From: a virus
Reading direction: 5' to 3' (one strand)
DNA length: 40,460 nt
UHGV virus genome: UHGV-1390708
Positions 6,809 through 39,190 of this stretch are shown in pieces (within the stretch, counting starts at the first letter, position 1; each line of letters opens with the position of its first letter). The notes below the pieces were generated by a model. The model was given only the letters and a program-made list of their open reading frames with translations, searched no databases and had not been told where the DNA came from. The translations under genes were made by a program, and so were the position numbers.

Positions 6809-6957
6809 TTCCTGCGATACCACGGAAGGTTGATAGCTGATTTCATCGCTTTATTTGCTTCAATCCACATTTTTGAATCACCAATAAATCTGGCTATTAC
6901 TGCTTTGTTCTGTGCTGCACGAAGCATCTGGTGATTGATGGCTATTTCATTGCGCAT
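6805..6957 (-). CDS. kil: Kil-like host killing / cell-division inhibitor
   Basis: Manual translation MRNEIAINHQMLRAAQNKAVIARFIGDSKMWIEANKAMKSAINLPWYRRK; the 'A.FIGD' motif and position after cIII match lambda Kil as I recall it. Confidence 0.5.
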   Translation of the reverse strand: MRNEIAINHQMLRAAQNKAVIARFIGDSKMWIEANKAMKSAINLPWYRRK

Positions 6958-7073
6958 AATAAGACCTCAACTCTTTTCCATCCGTCACGTAATTTACGGG
7001 TGATTCGTTCAAGTAAAGATTCATTTAGTTGGAAGGCACCCATGCGAGCGCCTCCCGCGATTGCGTAAATCAT
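6942..7073 (-). CDS. cIII: CIII (FtsH inhibitor that stabilises CII)
   Basis: Manual translation MIYAIAGGARMGAFQLNESLLERITRKLRDGWKRVEVLLCAMK; central ESLLERITRKLRDGWKR matches the lambda CIII helix; AAGGAA Shine-Dalgarno upstream. Confidence 0.8.
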   Translation of the reverse strand: MIYAIAGGARMGAFQLNESLLERITRKLRDGWKRVEVLLCAMK

Positions 7074-7097: not shown

Positions 7098-8066
7098 TTA
7101 GTAGGTTATTTTTGTTGCGAATACTTCGCCTTTTACGATGGCTGTTATGATATTTTTAGCAACATCTTCTGATGCGCCAACCTTGATAAGGTCAGCAAGT
7201 ATTTTGTTATTTACTTCTTTCCGGTGAGCTTTATCCTTTGCTCTACGCTCTTCTTCGTCCTTGATTCTTTTTTCTTCTGCTATTCTGGCTTGCTCTTTTG
7301 CTTCAGCCTCGCGACGGATTCGTTCAGCCTCCTCCTGTGCTTTTCTGCGTTCTGCTTCAATTGCTGCCTGCTTTTCTCTTTCAGCTCGTTCTGCTGCCTC
7401 TTTTGCTTCGCGCTGTGCTCGTTGCTCGGCTTCAATGCGTTCACGCTCTGCACGTTCCGCTGCGGCCTTAGCTTCTGCTTCTCGCCTTGCTGCTGCTTCA
7501 ATTTCGGCTTTTGCCTTTGCTTCGGCTTCTGCTCTGGCTTTCTCTTCAGCTTCTCTTTTTAAGCGTTCTTCATGCTCTCGCTTTTCCTGCTCCGCTTTGA
7601 GTCTTGCCTCTTCTCTTTGGCGGTCAAATTCGCGATCCATCAAAATCGCTATTTCATGGTCAGACTCAATTTGCTTTGCGAGAGCTTCAGCTGCTGCCTT
7701 AGCTTCTTCTTCGGCTTTAATCCGTGCCTGCTCCTCCTCATAATCAGTAAGAGGCTGGCGCGCCTTGGCTTTCAGTTCATCAAGGCGATCGCGCACTGTC
7801 TTGCGGTTGGCATCAATTAGCTTTGGAATTTCCTTCAGTTCAGCAACAAGGTCTTTGCCAAGACCATCGAGATATGTTTTCGTCTGCGCAACTTTATACG
7901 CCAGAGAAGCGATCTCCTTTCTGCCCTTTGCCGTTGTGATATCAGGCACAAAGGACATAACTTCACGTTCAACCTTTTGAAGGATTTCTTCAATCTGGTC
8001 GGCAGACTGAAATACAGTCATTGCATTTGCTTTTTCAATAACAACTAAATCTGTTACTTCACTCAT
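7098..8066 (-). CDS. Hypothetical coiled-coil protein with a long E/A/K/R-rich repeat region
   Basis: ORF 7098..8120 trimmed to the Met (MSEVTDLVV) preceded by GGAGG; about 170 residues of EAKA/ERAERE-type low-complexity helix. Confidence 0.7.
   Translation of the reverse strand: MSEVTDLVVIEKANAMTVFQSADQIEEILQKVEREVMSFVPDITTAKGRKEIASLAYKVAQTKTYLDGLGKDLVAELKEIPKLIDANRKTVRDRLDELKAKARQPLTDYEEEQARIKAEEEAKAAAEALAKQIESDHEIAILMDREFDRQREEARLKAEQEKREHEERLKREAEEKARAEAEAKAKAEIEAAARREAEAKAAAERAERERIEAEQRAQREAKEAAERAEREKQAAIEAERRKAQEEAERIRREAEAKEQARIAEEKRIKDEEERRAKDKAHRKEVNNKILADLIKVGASEDVAKNIITAIVKGEVFATKITY
7230..7750. repeat. Low-complexity coding repeat (GCT/GAA/AAG-rich) inside the coiled-coil gene
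   Basis: Reiterated gctgaagc / gcagaagc units visible in the sequence; they generate the spurious antisense ORFs listed in the track. Confidence 0.6.
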
Positions 8067-8078
8067 ATATCCTCCGTC

Positions 8079-8105
8079 AAAAAAATTGCCCTCACACTGG
8101 AGGGC
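8079..8105 (-). terminator. Putative intrinsic terminator in the leftward operon (tL-type)
   Basis: Hairpin gccctc-acactgg-agggc followed on the minus strand by AATTTTTTT, about 13 nt upstream of the coiled-coil gene's Shine-Dalgarno. Confidence 0.5.
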
Positions 8106-8241
8106 AAAGAAGATTTCCAATAATCAGAACAAGTCGGCTCCTGTTTAGTTACGAGCGACATTGCTCCGTGTATTCACTCGTTGGAATGAATACACAGCGC
8201 AGTGTTTATTCTGTTGTTTATGCCAAAAATAAAGGCCACCA

Positions 8242-8570: not shown

Positions 8571-8843
8571 TCATCTTGCTGTCAGTTGTTTTGATTTCCG
8601 GTAGCCTGCCGCGTAAATGGCTACGTTTGGCAGGCAAATACTTCCACTGCATTCATCTGCCTTCTTGCAGCGAAGGCTTCCGAGTGATGCTGCTTTGTCT
8701 GCTCTGACGCAACTAGAGATCTTTAGCGCAATTTTTCGCGCAAGTCTCTGCTCTTGCATTGCCTGTTCACGTTGAGCCTGCCTGCGTGCTCTGCGGCGAT
8801 TTCTGGCGTTATCGTCAGCCAGATATGTAATGACTACTGTCAT
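8571..8843 (-). CDS. N: N-type transcription antiterminator
   Basis: N-terminal arginine-rich motif NARNRRRARRQAQREQ; GGAGG Shine-Dalgarno 6 nt upstream; nutL lies upstream in the pL transcript. Confidence 0.7.
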   Translation of the reverse strand: MTVVITYLADDNARNRRRARRQAQREQAMQEQRLARKIALKISSCVRADKAASLGSLRCKKADECSGSICLPNVAIYAAGYRKSKQLTAR

Positions 8844-9202
8844 GTTGACCTCCGATGATTGACTTTGGTGGTGACGCGCCGGGTGCTTATCTTCCGGTTG
8901 CCGTCGTGCAGCTGCACTTCACGTCACCCCAAAGCCAACTACTCTTTGACTCACACTCTCGCAGTGAGCGCGCTCATGCCCTTGAGTCTCTGTCGCTTAT
9001 TAGCCGCTGATAACCGGTGCGCGTCTGGCATTCGCGCTGCCTTTCCGGAGCATGTTCCCTTATTTACCCTCACATCGGTCTGCTAAACCTGCTCGCCATT
9101 ACGCGACTCGGGGCAGCATCATTACTGCTGCATTGCCTTTCGGCTGCGGTCTAACCGCGTTAGTGCACCATTACGGCACCTCCTGTTTGGTTAAACTCAG
9201 TT

Positions 9203-9242
9203 CCCGCATTTCGGCGGGACAATCCCATCAATGTTAAAGAGC
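9203..9242 (-). promoter_or_regulatory. nutL (boxA GCTCTTTAA plus boxB hairpin)
   Basis: On the minus strand: GCTCTTTAA, 14-nt spacer, CCCGCCGAAATGCGGG; the boxB is identical to the nutR boxB. Confidence 0.6.
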
Positions 9243-9291
9243 CTGCCAATCTGTTCCGTTTGGCTACCAGCGTCCTGCTGATGGCTTAAAG

Positions 9292-9374
9292 ATAACTTAG
9301 GTTATAGGTGTGGTCAATAACCTAATTTATATTTTGTGGTAAATAAGTTATAAGTGATGGATAACAAAGGTATT
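9292..9374. promoter_or_regulatory. OL operator cluster and pL region
   Basis: Repeated 14-bp dyads of the form ATAAC-N4-GTTAT (ATAACTTAGGTTAT, ATAACCTAATTTAT, ATAACAAAGGTATT), matching the OR sites. Confidence 0.5.
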
Positions 9375-9504
9375 TTATTTTTGTAAATGTTGCTGATTGA
9401 TTGGTGTTTGAGGGCTTGCGTGCGGGGTGAAGGTGTTACCTTTGGCTTGATGCTTGTCTATGATGATGATGGGTGATTGGGTGGTGAACGGCAGGAAAAG
9501 AAAA

Positions 9505-9529
9505 CCCGGCGCTGAGGCCGGGTGTTTTT
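9505..9529. terminator. Bidirectional intrinsic terminator
   Basis: Hairpin cccggc-gctgag-gccggg with T-runs on both strands; ends the cI operon on the minus strand. Confidence 0.6.
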
Positions 9530-9824
9530 AGTCTTTTCTTTTGCTTAGCATTTCGTCGATTTCTAAGTCAATACGATATTGATCTATTGCTTTTCTCTCG
9601 TTTGGGGTTGGTATTTTATACTGTTCAATTAGATCTGTTGTGTATTTTATTTCATCTAATGTGATTTTTATATCAGAGAGAATCTCTTTTATATCAATTA
9701 GATGCTCTTCTTCTTTTGCGCGATTAGAGCTATGTTCAATCACTTGAGATAGCTTTTTACTAATGCTTAGCAAAACAAAAAGAATGATGACCAAAACAAC
9801 AACAAAAACTATCAGAAATTCCAT
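9528..9824 (-). CDS. Small membrane plus coiled-coil protein (moron in the rex position)
   Basis: 98-aa ORF; N-terminal transmembrane helix EFLIVFVVVLVIILFVLLSI then a charged helical region; GGAGGG Shine-Dalgarno; markedly AT-rich; immediately downstream of cI and followed by a terminator. Confidence 0.7.
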   Translation of the reverse strand: MEFLIVFVVVLVIILFVLLSISKKLSQVIEHSSNRAKEEEHLIDIKEILSDIKITLDEIKYTTDLIEQYKIPTPNERKAIDQYRIDLEIDEMLSKRKD

Positions 9825-9864
9825 TATCCCTCCGCACTTCCGTAAGTCTTCTTCTGATTATCGG

Positions 9865-10572
9865 TTACCAACTATGAGACGACCAGAATACTCTGCCAAT
9901 AATCCTTACGGTTTCATGAAATTCATCTCTATCCATTACTTCATCCGGGTACTCTTCGCGATTTATTGATCTGATTATCACCGATGTAGGGGTGGCGATT
10001 AATGTTTTTACTCGTAACAAATCAGACTGGCAAATAGCGTAGGTTTTACCATCTCTGATGGTGGTATCTTGCGTGTTAACACCAACAACATCGCCATCGT
10101 GAAGCGTTGGTTCCATGCTTTGCCCTACAACCCTAACTAGCTTGGCTGATCTTTCAGATACTCCCATCTTTTTCAGATAGTGCTTTCTGAAAACCAAAGA
10201 GAACTCCGATGATTCCTCTAGCTCGCAGCTACCGCTTCCAGCTGAAAGCGAAACGTTAAGAAGAGGCAACGCAACAAACTCGTCATCGTTTCTTTTAATG
10301 TCTTCCCATACCACAGCTTTTAAAGATGACTCACGGACATTGGATGGTTCTTCATGTGCACCATCCCTCATTTCACCAATACCAGAACTAAGCCATTCAG
10401 GGCGCACTTTTAAAGCATTGGCTAATTCAACCATCTTGCGAGATCCGTTTGTTTTACCGGACGACATCTTCTGTATGGCTGGCTGAGATATTCCAACCAT
10501 GTCAGCAAGCTGTGATTGTGATACCCCTGCTGAGCTCATGGCTGCATTTAGTCTTTCTGCGAATGTTTTCAT
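9865..10572 (-). CDS. cI: CI-type repressor (HTH plus LexA-like S24 peptidase domain)
   Basis: HTH 'SQSQLADMVGISQPAIQKM'; C-terminal 'VVGQSMEPTLHDGDVV' S24 motif. Start set at MKTFAERL because the longer form would run into OR. Confidence 0.85.
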   Translation of the reverse strand: MKTFAERLNAAMSSAGVSQSQLADMVGISQPAIQKMSSGKTNGSRKMVELANALKVRPEWLSSGIGEMRDGAHEEPSNVRESSLKAVVWEDIKRNDDEFVALPLLNVSLSAGSGSCELEESSEFSLVFRKHYLKKMGVSERSAKLVRVVGQSMEPTLHDGDVVGVNTQDTTIRDGKTYAICQSDLLRVKTLIATPTSVIIRSINREEYPDEVMDRDEFHETVRIIGRVFWSSHSW

Positions 10573-10584
10573 ACCCACAAATCT

Positions 10585-10647
10585 ATAACTACGGTTATCC
10601 AAAGTAAAATAACAAAGGTTATTGCTATTTTTTATAACTTGAGTTAT
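10585..10647. promoter_or_regulatory. OR operator cluster with divergent pRM/pR region
   Basis: Three dyads ATAACTACGGTTAT, ATAACAAAGGTTAT, ATAACTTGAGTTAT at about 24-bp spacing between cI and cro. Confidence 0.6.
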
Positions 10648-10683
10648 CTTTGGTTATAAGTAATGACCACAAGAGGTATGCTC

Positions 10684-10908
10684 ATGAATTTAGTAATTCA
10701 ACGAGCCTTGAAAATTGTCGGTAGCCAAAAGCGCCTTGCCGACAAGTGTGGTGTAACGCAGCCAGCAGTACACAAATGGCTGAAAGGCGGGTTGGTCTCT
10801 CCAGAGAAAGTTACCGCCATCGTTAACGCCACTGGAGGGCAGATCAAGGCTTACGAAATTCGCCCCGATTTGCCACACCTGTTTCCAAAACCGAATCAGG
10901 CAGCATAA
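10684..10908 (+). CDS. cro: Cro-like HTH regulator
   Basis: 74-aa form starting MNLVIQRAL, preceded by AGAGG; HTH 'QKRLADKCGVTQPAVHKW'; first rightward gene after OR. Confidence 0.75.
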   Translation: MNLVIQRALKIVGSQKRLADKCGVTQPAVHKWLKGGLVSPEKVTAIVNATGGQIKAYEIRPDLPHLFPKPNQAA

Positions 10909-31889: not shown

Positions 31890-33305
31890 ATGGCTACGTG
31901 GCAACAGGGTATTAATTCTGGTGGTTTTCTGGCTGGCATCGGTACGCAAAATGAGAATGCGCCAAAGGCAAGCGACATTAACGCAACGCTTGGTCTGATC
32001 CGCGAAAACAATGAACTGGCTCGCTCAGGTGCAAATAACGTTGGTCTGACCGCGTTACGTGGTCTGGCTGGAGTTGCTGATATTTATAAGCAGGAACAGC
32101 AACAGAAAGCGATTAATGCGTTCAATAAGGTTCATGCTGATGCATGGGCTTCTGGTGATCCATCGGGACTATTTAAGTTTGCCAAGGAAAATCCAGCGTT
32201 TGTTGCGCAGGCACAACAGGCGTTTTCCGGTCTTAATGAGCAGCAACGCAACGATATGGGCGATTTAGCCATGAGGGCTAACGTCGCTCTTTCTCAGGGA
32301 CCGGAAGCCTACAGTAAATTCATTACTGACAACAAGGACAGGTTAAATCGCGTTGGTGTTAATGCTGACTGGATGATTCAGACAGGTATCCAGAATCCAG
32401 AGCAGCTATCACACATGCTGACTACTATGTCTCTCGGTGCGCTTGGACCAGAAAAGGCGTTTGCTGTTCAGGACAAGATGGCTGGTCGTGAGATTGATCG
32501 CGGAAAACTTGCAGAGACAATCCGCAGCAATCAGGCTGGTGAAGCACTTCAGGCGAGAGGGCAAAACCTTTCCTATCAGTCAGCAATGACTGGGCACAAT
32601 ATCGCAGCACAACGCTTGGCTCTGGATCAGCAAGAGTTCGGGTTTAAGATGCAGCAAGCGCAGGAAAAGGCTCAGCAGTTGATTAGCGAAGCACCTAAGC
32701 TGTCAGTAAACATGGAAAAAGGCATCGAGACGGCTGTAAACAATGCTACAGCATCATCAAACTCAGCCAATTCTATGAGTGCGCTTGCTCAACAGTTCAG
32801 AGCAGAAAAACCAACGACAGGTTTGTTCGGTAACGCACAGAACATGTTCGCAAAACTTACCGGAAGCGATACAACATTGCGTGATTTGCGCATTCGCCAA
32901 AATGCCCTTGTTAACAGTCAGGTTCTTAAATTCCTACCTCCCGGCCCAGCAACGGATAAAGACGTTGAGATCGTTCGACAGGGTGCGCCAACTGACATGG
33001 ATAACCCTGAGACGGTCGCAAGATGGCTTGATGCAATGGCAAACCTTGAGCGACGAAACGCGCAGTTTAATGAGTTTAAAGCCGAGTGGATGAGCGCGAA
33101 TGGCAACCCTGGACAATCGCGTAATGGCGGTCAGATATTGGGGTTGGATGTTAAAAAAGGTGAATCATTGGGGAGTGCCGTTAAGCGGTATATGTCAATG
33201 AATACTGACGCAGCACCAGCGCAAGATTCGACACCTTCAGGAGAAACACCGAATCAGGTTGGATCATATACCTCAAAATCAGGCATTCAATTTACGGTGG
33301 AATGA
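31890..33305 (+). CDS. Ejection protein (P22 gp20-like)
   Basis: 471 aa, the same length and position as P22 gp20. Confidence 0.7.
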
Positions 33306-35428
33306 TGAAAGTAACTGCAAACGGTAAGACATTTACCTTCCCTGATGGTACGAGCACGGAAGATATTGGCACCGCCATTGATGAGTATTTTGCTGGTCAG
33401 GCTGTTCAGCAACAAACAGTTAATCAGGACAATAATGCACCAACACGGGAAGAACCATCATTGATGCAACAAGCTGGCGATTGGCTCACTGGTGGTCAAA
33501 GTGCAGGGCAAATTGCAGAACAGGCTGGTCGTGGTCTGGTAAACATACCATTTGACGTATTGCAGGGTGGCGCAAGTCTGATTAATGCAATCAGCCAGGG
33601 GCTTGGTGGCCCCAAGGTTTTGGATGATGTTTATCGCCCTGTCGATCGACCGACAGACCCTTGGGCGCAAGCCGGTGAAACAATTGGTGGGTATCTCCTG
33701 CCAATTGGCACAGCGGCAAAAGTTGCTGGAGCGCCAGCAAAGCTCGCAGGAGACATCGGTTCCGCAGGAAACATGATTGCAGGTTCTCTTGCTGATGCTG
33801 CAAATCAGGAGGGTGATTTTGCACAAAATGCTGCCATTAACGGTGGTATCAATATTGGTGCTCAAGGCGTTCTTTCAGGTGTCGGGCGCGTTATTGCGCC
33901 AAGGGTTTCACAGGCTCTTGGTGGTGCAGCACTGAATTCTGCTAATGATGTTTCTAGGATGGCAAAGTCAGGTGCTGGGCGTCAGTCAATTGCCAGTCAG
34001 GCCGCTAATGTGTCCGAAGATGTAGCAAAAGCGGCTGAGTCTGCTGGAATTGATATAAACGCATTAACACCAGGAATGCGATCTGGAAGTCGTGGAATTG
34101 CACAAGCCGAAGGCGCATTGGCATCAACACCTGGAATTGTTCAGGACGCCCATCAGGCAGCATTTAACGAAATATCATCAAAGTTAAGTCGAAACCTTGA
34201 TGAATTTGGGGCCACATCTGGAACGGCATCAGAAAAAAGTGCGGCTATAAAACAAAGGATTCTTCAAAATCTTGATCAGATGAAGGATGCCGAGCGCGCG
34301 GCATGGGATGACGTGCGGTCAACAATGCCAAATCAAAAAGCAAGAATGCTAAATGGTAATGCCGTTATTCAGGCAGAGCGATCTGCTGGCATACCGCTTA
34401 CTCCTGAAATGAAACAGTTTGTTCAGGCAAACAATCAAGGTGGAGTAACATTTGATGGCATGAAAGCATGGAGAGCGAAATTTGCTGATGCGGAGCAAAA
34501 ATATAAGCGTAGCGGAGAGGCAAATGCGGCAAGGAGAGCAGGGGAAATACGCCGGGCAATTACTGATGATATGCGCACAATGGCGGAAAACGGCGGATTT
34601 CTTGATGACTGGCAGAAAGCTAATGATCTGTCTAAAGCGAGGTTATCAGCACAAGAGAGTGCAGAGTCTGTTTTCGGGCGTGATTTGGCAACAGATGCAC
34701 TGATTACGAATGGAGTAAAATCCCTTCAATCATCGTCAGCTAAAGGTCTTAATGGTCCTGCTGGATTCCATTCTATGATCCGCGCGCTGCCAGAATCAGA
34801 GCGTGTTCCTGCTATTTCATCAATGTTGCAAGATGCTATCTCGCATGGTGTACGTGGTGGCAAAGCTGATGCAGCAGGAATTAACCATATCGCAGAGATA
34901 CTGACTCCACAAAATGTAAAAGCCATTAGCCGATATTCCTCAGAGCTTGGAAGAATTGCTGATGCATATGGCACTCTTGCAAGAGCAGCAGTGAAACCTC
35001 AGCAGTATATTGAAAGAACAGGTAGAACTGCCAATGTACTACGCGATCTGGATGCTGGTTTATCCAACGTCACATCAACAGTGTTAAATGCAATTGCCAA
35101 TTCAACATCAGGTGCCATTGTTGGTGGCGCTGGAGGAGGCATTGCAGGCGCTGCCGCAGGTGCTTTAGTTGGCGCTGGGTTAAAAGGCGCTGTATCTAAA
35201 ATTGCCACCACACGTAGTGGTCGGTATGCGATAGAGAAAGCAGTTCAGGAAGCAACTAAAGCAGTAAGAGCAGGCGGAAGCAAAGAAGCATTAGCGGCGG
35301 CGGAACGCAGATTTATGGCAAATAAGGCCGCCGTAAAAGCAATACGCGAGGCACTAGGAAACGAAGAGTTCCAGCGTTTAGCAAGGGCTGGAATTGTGGC
35401 ATCGCTTAGCGGAATGGCACAGGAGTAA
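33302..35428 (+). CDS. Ejection protein (P22 gp16-like)
   Basis: 708-aa Ala/Gly-rich protein, last gene of the ejection block. Confidence 0.7.
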
Positions 35429-35758
35429 TTAGTCATCCATGGATGGATTGAGCTTATCTCGTGTTGATGTGGCAATTTTACCAACATTTTTCAACCAAGA
35501 TTTTAAGAAGGATATGTCGTCCTTAATATCATGAATATCCTCATTCTTTATACGATCAACCTTATCCTCTAGGCTCTCTATAGAACGCTCAATGCTAGAC
35601 AGAGAGATTTTTAAGTCTCCTTGCTCACGTTCCAGTGAGGATTTGAGAGCACAATATTCGTTTTCTAGAATTCCTATTTTTTTTGTTAGAGAGTGCATTC
35701 GATACTCATACACCAAACTAGAAACGACTAATGCAGCCAACAGAAACCATTCAAGCAC
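35429..35758 (-). CDS. Small membrane plus coiled-coil protein (GTG start)
   Basis: ORF 35429..35974 trimmed to a GTG preceded by AGGAGG; this removes the overlap with the divergent gene. Transmembrane helix LEWFLLAALVVSSLVY then coiled coil; AT-rich. Confidence 0.5.
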   Translation of the reverse strand: MLEWFLLAALVVSSLVYEYRMHSLTKKIGILENEYCALKSSLEREQGDLKISLSSIERSIESLEDKVDRIKNEDIHDIKDDISFLKSWLKNVGKIATSTRDKLNPSMDD

Positions 35759-36436: not shown

Positions 36437-36464
36437 AACCCACCTTCAGGTGGGTTTTTTGTTT
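36437..36464. terminator. Bidirectional terminator overlapping the 3' end of the Mnt-like gene
   Basis: aacccacc-ttca-ggtgggtt hairpin with T-runs on both strands. Confidence 0.5.
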
Positions 36465-36766
36465 AGCAGTTCTCTCAACTTTTCGTTCTGCTCTCTGAAC
36501 TTTTCCTGTATTTCTTTTTGCATGGCGATAACCTGGGCTTGAAGTTGAACTAGCGCATCAACATTTAGCGGAACCGAGACGCTGTTGATTTTATCTGCTA
36601 TTTCCCCGAGTGTATTTTCTGCATTCAAGGCATCTTCCAGTATCTGAACAATCTCTGAGTTCATTGATCTGCCGTTACGTTTGGCTCGTTCAGCTATAGC
36701 ATCCCGCATTCCTGCAGGAAGCCTGATATTGAACCTATCCATTTCATGACTAGGGAACTTGCTCAT
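36446..36766 (-). CDS. Mnt-like ribbon-helix-helix repressor (copy 1)
   Basis: 'FNIRLPAGMRDAIAERAKRNGRSMNSEIVQILEDAL' is an Arc/Mnt-type RHH motif; diverges from the Arc-like gene across an operator region. Confidence 0.7.
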   Translation of the reverse strand: MSKFPSHEMDRFNIRLPAGMRDAIAERAKRNGRSMNSEIVQILEDALNAENTLGEIADKINSVSVPLNVDALVQLQAQVIAMQKEIQEKFREQNEKLRELLNKKPT

Positions 36767-36801
36767 ATGACCTCAACGTAAAGATGTTCGCTAAACAATA
36801 G

Positions 36802-36857
36802 CACCAACTTGACATCAAAATAAATGGTGTTAAATTGGTTCTAGAACCAAGTTGGTA
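36802..36857. promoter_or_regulatory. RHH-repressor operator: 12-bp perfect palindrome inside a larger inverted repeat, with a TTGACA -35-like hexamer
   Basis: GGTTCTAGAACC (36837-36848) flanked by CACCAACTTG ... CAAGTTGGT; TTGACA at 36809-36814. Confidence 0.55.
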
Positions 36858-36877
36858 TCATTATAGGAGGATTACTT

Positions 36878-37051
36878 ATGAAAGATGTGCTTTACACAGG
36901 TCGTAAAAGTCAAAGTTTTCAGCTTCGTTTGCCAGCGCGAATGAAGGAGGAGATTAGACGTGTTGCTGAAATGGATGGAATTTCTATCAACTCTGCGATT
37001 GTGCAGCGACTGGCTAAAAGCCTGAGAGAGGAAAGAGCTAATGCCCAGTAA
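36878..37051 (+). CDS. Arc-like ribbon-helix-helix repressor
   Basis: Manual translation MKDVLYTGRKSQSFQLRLPARMKEEIRRVAEMDGISINSAIVQRLAKSLREERANAQ; GGAGG Shine-Dalgarno. Confidence 0.6.
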   Translation: MKDVLYTGRKSQSFQLRLPARMKEEIRRVAEMDGISINSAIVQRLAKSLREERANAQ

Positions 37052-37751
37052 AAATAGTGAAGCCCAGCAGTGCGCGAACACAAACTGGGCCTCTATGTCA
37101 GTAACCGTATGCAAGGAAACTAACATGAATATTGTAGCAAAATCAGATTACAACTTCCACGGAGTTGAGTTGGTGCCCACCCGTGATATGCATGGTGTTT
37201 GGTTTACATCATCTAATATTGCATCTGCACTTAAATACGCAAATAGTCGTGCAGTAACAATGATTTATAACAAGTATAGCGATGAGTTTAGCGCCGGAAT
37301 GACTCAGGTACTCGAAGTGAGTACCTCAGGAAATTATCGCAAAAAAGTGCGAGTTTTCTCACTACGCGGTGCCCACCTAATCGCGATGTTTGCTCGCACT
37401 CCGGTAGCCAAAGAGTTCCGCCGCTGGGTGCTGGATATTTTGGATCGGCAGGCAGAATGCTCACCGATTGCAAAACAGTTTACTGACGAAGAACTGGTTA
37501 ATCTCTGCTACTTACAATTGTGGATGGAGAAGAGTCAACAAATGTGCAAACACATCTACCCAGGAATGAAGCAAATTGGTTCTGAGCTTTCAGGAAGGAT
37601 TTACGATATTGCATATGAGACTCGCTACATGTCAGAAGAAACCAAGAAATCACTTCTTCGTGAAATGAAGAATCTTGATACCAACAATTTTGTCGTAAAG
37701 AACGCTCAGCCAATACTGGCAAAACTGCGCGGCGAGGAATGGATTCATTGA
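37041..37751 (+). CDS. ant: Antirepressor Ant (Bro-N-type)
   Basis: 236-aa ORF downstream of the Arc-like gene; Bro-N-like 'FHGVELVPTRDMHGVWFTSSNIASAL'. An alternative start at 37127 (MNIVAKS, AAGGAA Shine-Dalgarno) is possible. Confidence 0.7.
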   Translation: MPSKNSEAQQCANTNWASMSVTVCKETNMNIVAKSDYNFHGVELVPTRDMHGVWFTSSNIASALKYANSRAVTMIYNKYSDEFSAGMTQVLEVSTSGNYRKKVRVFSLRGAHLIAMFARTPVAKEFRRWVLDILDRQAECSPIAKQFTDEELVNLCYLQLWMEKSQQMCKHIYPGMKQIGSELSGRIYDIAYETRYMSEETKKSLLREMKNLDTNNFVVKNAQPILAKLRGEEWIH

Positions 37752-37770
37752 TTGGTGCGCCGGACGGCGC

Positions 37771-37801
37771 AAAAAGAAAACCGCCAGTGTGCTGCTGGCG
37801 G
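37771..37801 (-). terminator. Putative minus-strand terminator
   Basis: ccgccag-N7-ctggcgg hairpin followed on the minus strand by TTTTCTTTTT. Confidence 0.3.
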
Positions 37802-37839
37802 CCTATGTCACACCCTTACTACCACATAAGGAATGCCTA

Positions 37840-38565
37840 ATGACTTTTAAGAATGTAGCAAACATCGGATCCGTTGTCACGGATAAAACCATTGACAGCC
37901 AAAGTCTTCTGATGATGGTTAATGAAGCTCGCAAGTTATGTGGAGAGCCATCAGTACGTAACAACAAATTCATCGAGAAAATTGAGGATGAATTGGAGGG
38001 CGAGACCTACACAAAAAGTGTAGGTCGGAAAAACGGGGCTGACATTGATGTTATCTCCATGACTATCAAGCAGGCGCTTCGTGTTGCTGCTCGCGAATCT
38101 AAAGCAGTTCGCCGAACACTTGTAGACAAACTTGAAAGTATGCAGGAAGCACACATTAAAAGCGGTAAATCAGCGAGTGGACTTGTTGAGTATCGTCAAG
38201 CGCGAACATTGAAAATGACGGTTGAAGCTGTTACCAATCTGTTCGATCTGATGCCAAATCTTGCGCCTGAGGCAAAGCAGACTGCGGCAGCAAGCATAAT
38301 CAACCCGATCGTTGGTTTTAATGCAATACCTCTTCCAGCAATAGAAGAGCATTACTACTCAGCAGGGGAGGTTGCAGAGCAGCTTGGAGTAACGGCCAAC
38401 AAGATTGGTCGCATTGCTAACGCAAACAACCTCAAAACTGAGCAGTACGGCAAGTTCTTCCTAGATAAATCTGCGCATTCCAGCAAACAGGTAGAGGCGT
38501 TCCGCTACAATGCGGAAGGTGTTAAAGCACTACAACACCTGATTCATGGGAGTAATGTTGCATAA
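37840..38565 (+). CDS. Antirepressor-like protein (KilA-C-like C-terminus)
   Basis: ORF 37789..38565 trimmed to MTFKNVANIG (AAGGAA Shine-Dalgarno); the C-terminus 'YYSAGEVAEQLGVTANKIGRIANANNLKT' resembles KilA-C-type domains. Confidence 0.55.
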   Translation: MTFKNVANIGSVVTDKTIDSQSLLMMVNEARKLCGEPSVRNNKFIEKIEDELEGETYTKSVGRKNGADIDVISMTIKQALRVAARESKAVRRTLVDKLESMQEAHIKSGKSASGLVEYRQARTLKMTVEAVTNLFDLMPNLAPEAKQTAAASIINPIVGFNAIPLPAIEEHYYSAGEVAEQLGVTANKIGRIANANNLKTEQYGKFFLDKSAHSSKQVEAFRYNAEGVKALQHLIHGSNVA

Positions 38566-38786
38566 TGGCAAAGAAAAAATATGGCATTATGCCGCCAAGA
38601 ATCAAAGGAAGAGCCAGGGTAAAAGGCGATGCTGGAAGGTATCACATTCTTGGAGTTCTGTGGCATGAGAGAGCTTTAATTTTAAGTAGACCTCATGGGT
38701 ACATTGAAAAGGTATCTATAGATAGAGTAGAGATTCTTCCCCTTACACCTGAAGAAGAAGAAACGTACGGACTTTTTGATAACTAA
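38565..38786 (+). CDS. Hypothetical protein (73 aa)
   Basis: ATG overlaps the upstream stop (TAATG); AT-rich; followed by a terminator. Confidence 0.5.
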   Translation: MAKKKYGIMPPRIKGRARVKGDAGRYHILGVLWHERALILSRPHGYIEKVSIDRVEILPLTPEEEETYGLFDN

Positions 38787-38794
38787 CCAACTAA

Positions 38795-38817
38795 ACCCGC
38801 TTAATCGCGGGTTTTTT
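38795..38817 (+). terminator. Intrinsic terminator
   Basis: acccgc-ttaatc-gcgggt hairpin followed by TTTTTT. Confidence 0.65.
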
Positions 38818-39058
38818 CTTTTCTAAGGATATCAGCCACAACTTCTTTTACTCGTTCCGAGATTAATGAGGCCAGCCTCTCTTCTTCATCACGATACCCG
38901 CTTACAGGTGATGGTTTGGAGAGTGATTCTTCCATCGTAGCCACAATTTCGGAATTGATAGACCTGTTATTCATTTTTGCACGTTGCTTAATCTTAGCGT
39001 GCAACTCGTGCGTAAGCCTCAAGTGGAACTGCGCCTCATCGTATTTGCTGTACATCAT
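38801..39058 (-). CDS. mnt: Mnt repressor (copy 2)
   Basis: 'NNRSINSEIVATMEESLSKPSPVSGYRDEEERLA' resembles P22 Mnt ('NGRSMNSE...SKPSPVTGYRNDAERLA'); start at the Met preceded by GAGG. Confidence 0.75.
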   Translation of the reverse strand: MMYSKYDEAQFHLRLTHELHAKIKQRAKMNNRSINSEIVATMEESLSKPSPVSGYRDEEERLASLISERVKEVVADILRKEKTRD

Positions 39059-39190
39059 CAATGCCTCACCAAATGGGTGGAATGGCATCGTAAAACCTAC
39101 TGTACAAATCAACAATCGTACCATTTCGGTATGCAACAAACACCAACCGTAGCCATGCTGCGGCGATTCCTTGTATCTGGAGCAAATTAA

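Follow-up and report, generated by a model that had tools for sequence, protein, structure and literature searches.

ORF98, a repressor-linked membrane protein gene of a P22-like lambdoid prophage and a candidate for phage exclusion

Mosaicism and accessory genes are known to concentrate in the interval between the cI and N genes of lambdoid phages, where rexAB of phage lambda is the classic case (PMC7067206, PMC8585504). The present analysis concerns a gene in this interval of the UHGV virus genome UHGV-1390708, a stretch of 40,460 nucleotides that is referred to below as the window. The gene is an open reading frame (ORF) of 98 amino acids, here called ORF98, which lies at 9528..9824 on the minus strand, begins with ATG and is deposited in RefSeq as WP_000394871.1, a 'hypothetical protein'. 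ORF98 is an accessory ('moron') gene of a P22-like lambdoid prophage, in which it is one allele of a variable cargo slot located between cI and oL/N. Its product is predicted to be a bitopic membrane protein and, from its place in a slot where other phages have genes that protect the lysogen, such as rexAB or bstA, is a credible new candidate for a prophage-encoded phage-exclusion protein.

Lambda Rex consists of two genes, which encode the cytoplasmic sensor RexA and the four-helix, channel-like RexB. Like rexA-rexB, ORF98 is located between cI and oL on the cI strand, is followed by a terminator before oL, and has a product assigned to the inner membrane, as one of the two Rex proteins is; ORF98, like lambda Rex, is presumably expressed in the lysogen from the repressor promoter. 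ORF98 differs in being a single gene with one non-polar anchor and in sharing no sequence similarity with Rex. It matched no Rex model in PADLOC, and the two-gene layout of Rex is absent. Another parallel in layout is BstA of Salmonella phage BTP1 and its relatives, which is co-transcribed with cI and whose association with repressors is maintained in different genera (PMC8585504, PMC7067206). Like ORF98, bstA is a single gene directly 3' of cI with its own terminator, and it holds the same slot behind cI alleles that are 72-82% identical to the cI of the window. BstA is a soluble DNA-binding protein of about 300 amino acids with a self-immunity DNA element (aba), whereas ORF98 is a membrane protein of 98 amino acids, and ORF98 gave no match to the BstA profile (PADLOC PDLC02356).

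Two further systems resemble the predicted protein more than its genetic position. P22 SieA has a multi-span predicted topology and a mass of about 19 kDa, and its gene lies between genes 16 and 9, whereas ORF98 lies behind cI. SieA is a prophage-expressed protein of the inner membrane; its conserved motif is predicted to face the cytoplasm, and it binds the ejection proteins gp16 and gp20, blocking DNA delivery (PMC10883804). ORF98 is likewise a small inner-membrane protein of a prophage, by prediction, and the phage of the window is P22-like, with homologues of gp20 and gp16. The SieA motif FxRYPxEAxxFNK is absent from the ORF98 sequence; with neither this motif nor a place between genes 16 and 9, ORF98 does not belong to SieA types A-C. 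PdpSau, an abortive-infection (Abi) protein of a Staphylococcus aureus prophage, is membrane-anchored with a cytoplasmic C-terminus and acts after DNA entry (PMC10127798). Like ORF98, it is the product of a single prophage gene and has a membrane helix at the N-terminus, and its C-terminal part is cytoplasmic, as is predicted for ORF98. It differs in its Gram-positive host, its positively charged C-terminus (the ORF98 tail is acidic) and its linkage to lysis genes, and the two proteins show no homology.

A variable cargo slot behind the repressor

The upstream gene of the presumed operon encodes a cI-type repressor (9865..10572, minus strand; annotated as 235 amino acids in RefSeq copies, with the start at 10572) that contains HTH_3 and Peptidase_S24 domains (Pfam, E = 8e-7 and 1e-17). 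Its stop codon is separated from the start of ORF98 by 40 bp. A Shine-Dalgarno sequence, GGAGGG (9828..9833, minus strand), stands 3 nt before the ATG. Four bases past the ORF98 stop codon begins a hairpin terminator (9504..9523, scored on both strands) with a 7-bp stem, six G-C pairs and a folding energy of -13.7 kcal/mol, which closes the cI-ORF98 unit. The guanine plus cytosine (G+C) content of ORF98 is 30.3%, compared with 43.6% for cI and 47.8% for the window. An earlier, sequence-only reading of the window had described a 98-residue, AT-rich ORF 40 bp downstream of cI on the same strand, with a strong ribosome-binding site and a bidirectional terminator, and each of these features was recovered here.

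The location of the gene relative to the operators was established from the palindrome ATAACNNNNGTTAT, of which the window has seven copies compared with an expectation of 0.9. Two clusters, at 9292-9330 and 10585-10647, contain five of these copies; they bracket the cI-ORF98 pair and stand where oL and oR belong, near the N gene (8571-8843) and a Cro-like gene (10663-10908). The cluster assigned to oR (10585..10647) comprises three palindromes between cI and cro, in the pRM/pR region; that assigned to oL (9292..9330) comprises two, one with a mismatch, upstream of N and adjoining a pL-like promoter match (9317-9289, minus strand). Because the operator-like clusters bracket the pair, ORF98 is situated inside the immunity region. 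It occupies the position of lambda rexAB, between cI and oL/pL on the cI strand, as the sequence-only reading had proposed.

The contents of this position were examined in 80 viral contigs that encode relatives of the window cI, for which the gene after the repressor was listed. A cI at least 95% identical to that of the window, together with enough downstream sequence, was present in 48 of them. ORF98 follows the repressor in 29 of the 48; in 14 its place is taken by a 113-residue ORF of the DUF3024 type, with a 37-bp gap, and one further contig has a truncated copy of that gene (84 amino acids). A DUF6932 protein of 159 or 192 amino acids occupies the slot in three contigs, and a 145-residue protein of PHROG 5893 in one. 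The alternatives found behind the same cI thus comprise two PADLOC defence candidates (PDC-S43 and PDC-M63A) and one gene of unknown type.

Behind more distant cI alleles the cargo is more varied. It includes BstA in two contigs, L096 and L116 (PADLOC PDLC02356, E = 1e-124 and 5e-104; cI 82% and 72% identical), two unknown proteins of 349 and 146 amino acids, a small membrane zinc-ribbon protein and an O-antigen-type rhamnosyl transferase (L122/L123). In 16 contigs with a cI that is 85% identical, the slot holds no cargo.

The edges of the exchanged unit were located by aligning the DNA of the window with that of phages that share its cI and carry other cargo. Homology breaks off at 9863, two bases beyond the cI stop codon, and is regained at 9524 in L050, which has the terminator and the spacer to oL in common with the window, and at 9392-9414 in L080 and L086. 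With breakpoints at 9863 and 9524, the unit exchanged in the window is 9525..9862 (minus strand), a segment of 338 bp that contains the ribosome-binding site and ORF98; the terminator itself is common to at least one other cargo allele, that of L050. ORF98 therefore shows the marks of a moron: a position between cI and oL on the cI strand, replacement by unrelated cargo behind the same repressor, and deviant G+C content. That it is real, cI-linked cargo of this slot is a conclusion in which we have high confidence.

The linkage to repressors extends beyond the cI of the window. Every relative from an enterobacterial phage whose neighbourhood was readable (34-100% identity to ORF98) directly follows the 3' end of a cI-type repressor gene and shares its strand. 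In all 40 loci first gathered, an ORF of repressor size (at least 230 amino acids) ends 1-40 bp upstream on the same strand; the identity of these repressors as HTH_3 and Peptidase_S24 proteins comes from precomputed Pfam calls for sampled loci among the 40. The viral contigs L037, L038, L039, L125 and L127, whose relatives have 34-52% identity to ORF98, are arranged in the same way and have an N-like gene farther downstream, and two of these (L125 and L127) are loci beyond the first 40. The gap behind the repressor is 1-20 bp in the relatives, compared with 40 bp in the window.

Between most lineages the repressors are only 21-41% identical, while the relatives of ORF98 are 34-77% identical. 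The window cI has 22-26% identity to the types of L002, L004, L038 and L039 and 41% to that of L037; in the comparison of the window with L002, ORF98 is 77% identical and cI 25%. At least seven repressor alleles, L125 counted, have a family member directly 3'. As the repressors diverge far more than ORF98 while the junction persists, the gene has moved repeatedly between immunity types, or the repressors have been swapped beside it, with the junction kept every time.

This attachment of relatives 3' of at least seven cI alleles with gaps of 1-40 bp is as predicted if the gene is expressed from the repressor promoter. A terminator scan and folding detected neither a hairpin nor a terminator in the 40-bp gap between cI and ORF98, and a terminator directly 3' of the stop codon was present in seven of the eight family loci examined. 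Only one weak, chance-level promoter-like match was found between cI and ORF98 (9899-9871, minus strand; TTGGCA, 17 nt, CATAGT; 9 of 12 positions). This match, which falls within the final codons of cI some 45 nt upstream of ORF98, could serve as a pLIT-like internal promoter. In the P22-like Salmonella prophage BTP1, cI and bstA form one operon with a single transcription start, and reads cross the 88-bp gap between them (PMC7067206, PMC8585504). From the gene layout and the precedents of BstA and Rex, ORF98 is most likely co-transcribed with cI from the repressor promoters up to the slot terminator, and hence would be made continuously in the lysogen.

Two observations on the surroundings of the slot are recorded here. 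In Citrobacter-type loci, a gene of 68-74 amino acids (L002, 6324-6530; L004 and L006, 6324-6548; minus strand) converges on the same terminator from the oL side. The L002 copy belongs to PHROG 3975, which has no assigned function, and the gene has no Pfam or PADLOC match. A model in which it is a partner of ORF98 was rejected, since the window lacks the gene. Between oL and the terminator of the window lies a non-coding, G-rich spacer of 173 bp (9331-9503), which was found in 105 complete Escherichia coli genomes and also behind at least one other type of cargo (L050). A small RNA in this spacer was considered and rejected: the fold z-score of -2.5 on the plus strand is mostly due to the terminator, and the plus strand has no promoter match. 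Rfam identified no RNA family in 8800-10800. In the record of the extraintestinal pathogenic E. coli (ExPEC) strain XM (NZ_CP025328.1), 814080-815480 corresponds to this region of the window at 100% identity; the search reports two places in the record, and a second full or partial copy of cI-ORF98 may exist there.

The predicted protein and its family

The ORF98 product begins with a membrane anchor (codons 3-21; 9762..9818, minus strand), FLIVFVVVLVIILFVLLSI, in which all 19 residues are hydrophobic (mean Kyte-Doolittle value 3.67) and none has a polar or charged side chain. An AlphaFold2 model built with the family alignment has helices at residues 2-38, 45-68 and 74-97, with a mean predicted local distance difference test (pLDDT) score of 82. 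Residues 31-40, a linker that coincides with the variable part of the alignment, are modelled with low confidence (block mean pLDDT of 53). The C-terminal part of the protein is a conserved acidic helical domain (codons 44-94; 9543..9695, minus strand), in which two helices are split by a Pro-x-Pro turn, and the tail has a net charge of -4. The transmembrane helix and charged helical tail of the sequence-only reading are both borne out by these predictions.

The orientation of the protein in the membrane can be read from its charges by the positive-inside rule. In 18 of 18 family members Lys and Arg are absent before the anchor, one to three are present within the 12 residues after it, and the net charge of the tail is -2 to -9. 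The predicted topology is N-out/C-in, which would place the conserved acidic domain in the cytoplasm. ORF98 is accordingly modelled as a single-pass inner-membrane protein with a cytoplasmic two-helix domain of about 55 residues on a variable linker. Its anchor resembles a tether rather than a channel element and, having no polar residue, ORF98 is not expected to form a channel itself. Nor does it have the features of a holin or a type I toxin: besides its non-polar anchor, it has 98 residues with a conserved soluble domain, and the Rfam scan of 8800-10800 gave no RNA.

Fold searches with ORF98 returned no informative match, and a profile search of the PDB returned only designed coiled coils and MotB anchors. 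In scans of Pfam, NCBIfam and PADLOC all matches were below threshold and attributable to noise from membrane helices or coiled coils (DUF5385, MscL and ZorB), with ZorB the sole PADLOC match (E = 0.01, 13 bits). ORF98 is a member of PHROG 18389, which it matches over its full length (E = 1.8e-61, 205 bits, positions 1-98 of 98). That group has no annotation, so membership does not assign a function to ORF98. A full-text literature search for WP_000394871 and phrog_18389 returned no paper; the prophage defence screen of Brenes & Laub 2025 was outside its scope.

Close relatives of ORF98 comprise 11 clusters among 5.8 billion proteins searched; none has a name, and E. coli and Citrobacter are their only sources. 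When 1.84 billion cluster representatives were searched exhaustively with a profile, a wider family of 14 proteins emerged at E ≤ 0.001. Two contig scans with one genome per species found no confirmed relative. Judged by these searches, the family is small, at about 14 clusters at 50% identity. Its members are 94-126 amino acids long and keep the architecture down to 26% identity, with a variable linker and a near-invariant C-terminal half that carries the motif IKYTTDxIExYKLPxxxERxxIDxxRIDxEI in its C-terminal block. Four residues (Y69, P72, D81 and E88) are invariant in 17 sequences with identities down to 26%. Two shorter entries were noted: P0043 (73 amino acids) is a truncated gene call in which an in-frame upstream reading restores the N-terminal hydrophobic helix, and P0042 (78 amino acids), from a 536-bp contig, has no anchor and looks incomplete.

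The ratio of nonsynonymous to synonymous substitution rates (dN/dS) between ORF98 and the Citrobacter-type genes (76% protein identity) is 0.15-0.17, with dS of 0.8-0.9 and dN of 0.13-0.14, values that indicate purifying selection on ORF98. Homologues are AT-rich as well, with 30-36% G+C compared with 43-48% for their own cI. The identical protein is encoded on 603 contigs. Of 5,426 complete E. coli genomes, 98 (about 2%) carry the locus, always on the chromosome, with O26 Shiga-toxin strains among them. Among 50,697 deposited phages searched with tblastn, a single record contains ORF98, the unannotated Shiga toxin (Stx) 1a phage LC744178.1. The conservation of the coding sequence indicates that ORF98 is an actual gene and not a chance ORF.

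The most distant member of the family, on the metagenome contigs L046 (4855-5222) and L047, is called as a soluble protein of 73 amino acids; extension to an in-frame ATG 146 nt upstream brings back the membrane helix at the N-terminus and gives a length of about 122 amino acids. In both contigs it lies 19 bp upstream of a gene for a 193-residue PIN-domain protein (Pfam E = 4e-7); the setting is chromosomal, and OsmC and transporter genes are among the neighbours. These two genes could constitute a two-gene module.

Possible functions of ORF98

Our best guess is that ORF98, as a single gene, would protect against other phages by exclusion or abortive infection. It would do so by binding a partner of phage or host origin where the inner membrane faces the cytoplasm; an early phage protein or the machinery of DNA delivery would be possible partners, a binding mechanism that is speculative. 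Action of this kind is suggested by the architecture of ORF98, with SieA and PdpSau as precedents. A defence function is plausible, and the argument for it is one of position: the slot alternates between ORF98, two PADLOC candidates behind the same cI and BstA behind related cI, which suggests, circumstantially, that ORF98 may be an exclusion effector. The full proposal (slot cargo, lysogen expression, an N-out/C-in anchor and a role in phage exclusion) could, in our estimate, equally well prove right or wrong. A more specific version would make ORF98 the founder of a new class of minimal anti-phage protein, in which a single-anchor protein of 98 amino acids uses its acidic two-helix domain (YKLP...ER..ID) to trap a component of the incoming phage. 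The target could be the conduit for DNA delivery, at its cytoplasmic end, or else an early phage protein, an enzymatic or pore-forming partner would be unnecessary, and the same domain might be reused outside phages, for instance beside the PIN nuclease gene. This version is tentative, and we think it rather less likely to be right than wrong.

Several observations weigh against an exclusion factor made in the lysogen. ORF98 has no similarity to any known defence protein in the PADLOC, Pfam and NCBIfam scans. Some of the cargo in the slot (the rhamnosyl transferase of L122/L123) falls outside classical defence, and in some contigs the slot is empty. H-NS could silence a gene whose G+C content is 30%, and the promoter-like match at 9899-9871 could drive ORF98 independently of the repressor promoters; yet the number of such matches is at the chance level given by shuffled sequence. 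Distant members from outside enterobacterial phages are not encoded beside repressors: they lie on a Pelagicoccus contig, beside a sigma-54 activator or beside a PIN-domain gene. The domain therefore has uses outside lysogeny.

This last observation is also consistent with a gene for lysogenic conversion or host physiology, in which the tethered domain would adjust envelope stress signalling, a transporter or division and confer a fitness benefit on the lysogen. An N-out single anchor with cytoplasmic helices is a generic architecture, shared by PspB and similar host regulators; the distant homologues are in chromosomal, non-phage contexts, and some phages carry the O-antigen-type rhamnosyl transferase in the slot. 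However, the enterobacterial subfamily occurs only behind phage repressors, it alternates in the slot with two defence candidates and, behind related cI alleles, with BstA, whose Abi activity is proven, and Pfam gave no match to PspB or any host family at E ≤ 1. We regard a host-physiology role as unlikely, though worth keeping in mind.

The tight and conserved linkage to cI could instead point to a regulator of the prophage's own lysis-lysogeny circuit, such as a tethered, cIII-like modulator of FtsH/HflKC, or of induction. FtsH and HflKC act at the membrane, where a small helical protein would be located. However, 19 of the 48 phages with the same cI are without ORF98, and the group with 85%-identical cI has no cargo at all; as so many phages with the same cI do without the gene, the switch works in its absence. 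The linked repressors, which are only 21-41% identical, argue against specific binding of cI, and the phage already encodes cIII (6942-7073). A regulatory role of this type is improbable.

The sequence-only reading had also suggested that ORF98 and the product of a gene at 35429-35758 (minus strand) belong to one family of small exclusion effectors. That gene is best read from a GTG at 35758 behind AAGGAGG and encodes 109 amino acids (PHROG 5962, no assigned function). It lies tail to tail with a gp16-type DNA transfer gene (33302-35428, PHROG 770), which follows a gp20 Inj_translocase gene, and is succeeded by Arc-like and antirepressor genes. P22-like phages keep sieA between the gp16-like gene and the Arc/antirepressor genes (PMC10883804), and the gene at 35429-35758 is in the P22 sieA position. 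Its product is without the SieA motif, and it is a candidate for a different exclusion gene in the sieA slot.

The resemblance between the two proteins holds for gross architecture, as in each a hydrophobic helix at the N-terminus leads into a charged, helical tail, and both genes are in known exclusion slots (rex and sieA; PMC10883804). It does not extend to the predicted shapes, since ORF98 has an anchor, a linker and two helices, whereas the 109-residue product, which has an N-terminal hydrophobic stretch, is predicted to be a single continuous helix from residue 2 to 103. Pairwise alignment revealed no homology either: BLASTP gave E = 8.5, hhalign of the family alignments gave 9% probability over 27 columns confined to the membrane helices, the PHROGs (18389 and 5962) are separate and without cross-hits, and neither conserved motif is present in the other protein. 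Common descent of the two is very improbable, and the link between the genes is positional, not familial. Finally, the suggestion that ORF98 is a spurious or decaying ORF of no function in an AT-rich spacer, prompted by its short length, its composition and its annotation as merely hypothetical, can be dismissed as barely conceivable in view of its dN/dS, its conserved length and architecture, the four invariant residues, the conserved ribosome-binding site and terminator, and the occurrence of the identical protein on 603 contigs.

Other genes of the window and significance

Two other regions of the window were noted. A protein of 340 amino acids encoded in the pL operon (7098-8120, minus strand) has in its middle a long, very charged stretch rich in Ala, Glu, Lys and Arg (AEEKARAEAEAKAKAEIEAAARREAEAK...). 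Pfam gave no match to this protein, and the two PHROGs that it matches, 1376 and 21365, are without assigned function. At 36446-39139 there is an immI-like region in which Arc-like ribbon-helix-helix genes (36446-36766 and 38801-39139, minus strand) flank two antirepressor genes (37041-37751, Bro-N and P22_AR_C; 37789-38565, PHROG 1726). With this region the phage has a second, P22-style immunity circuit besides cI and cro.

ORF98 is of a known kind, that of a repressor-linked accessory gene in the lambdoid cI-N hotspot; its protein family is uncharacterised. Most cargo of the cI-N slot is still unnamed, and one family can now be defined by its boundaries, its motif, the topology predicted for it and the strict way in which it is tied to at least seven heteroimmune repressors. 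If ORF98 does exclude phages, it would be among the smallest self-contained defence proteins, and its presence would matter for which hosts therapeutic and Stx-converting phages can infect. If its function is not defence, ORF98 would provide a clean test case for the other genes that prophages express alongside their repressors.
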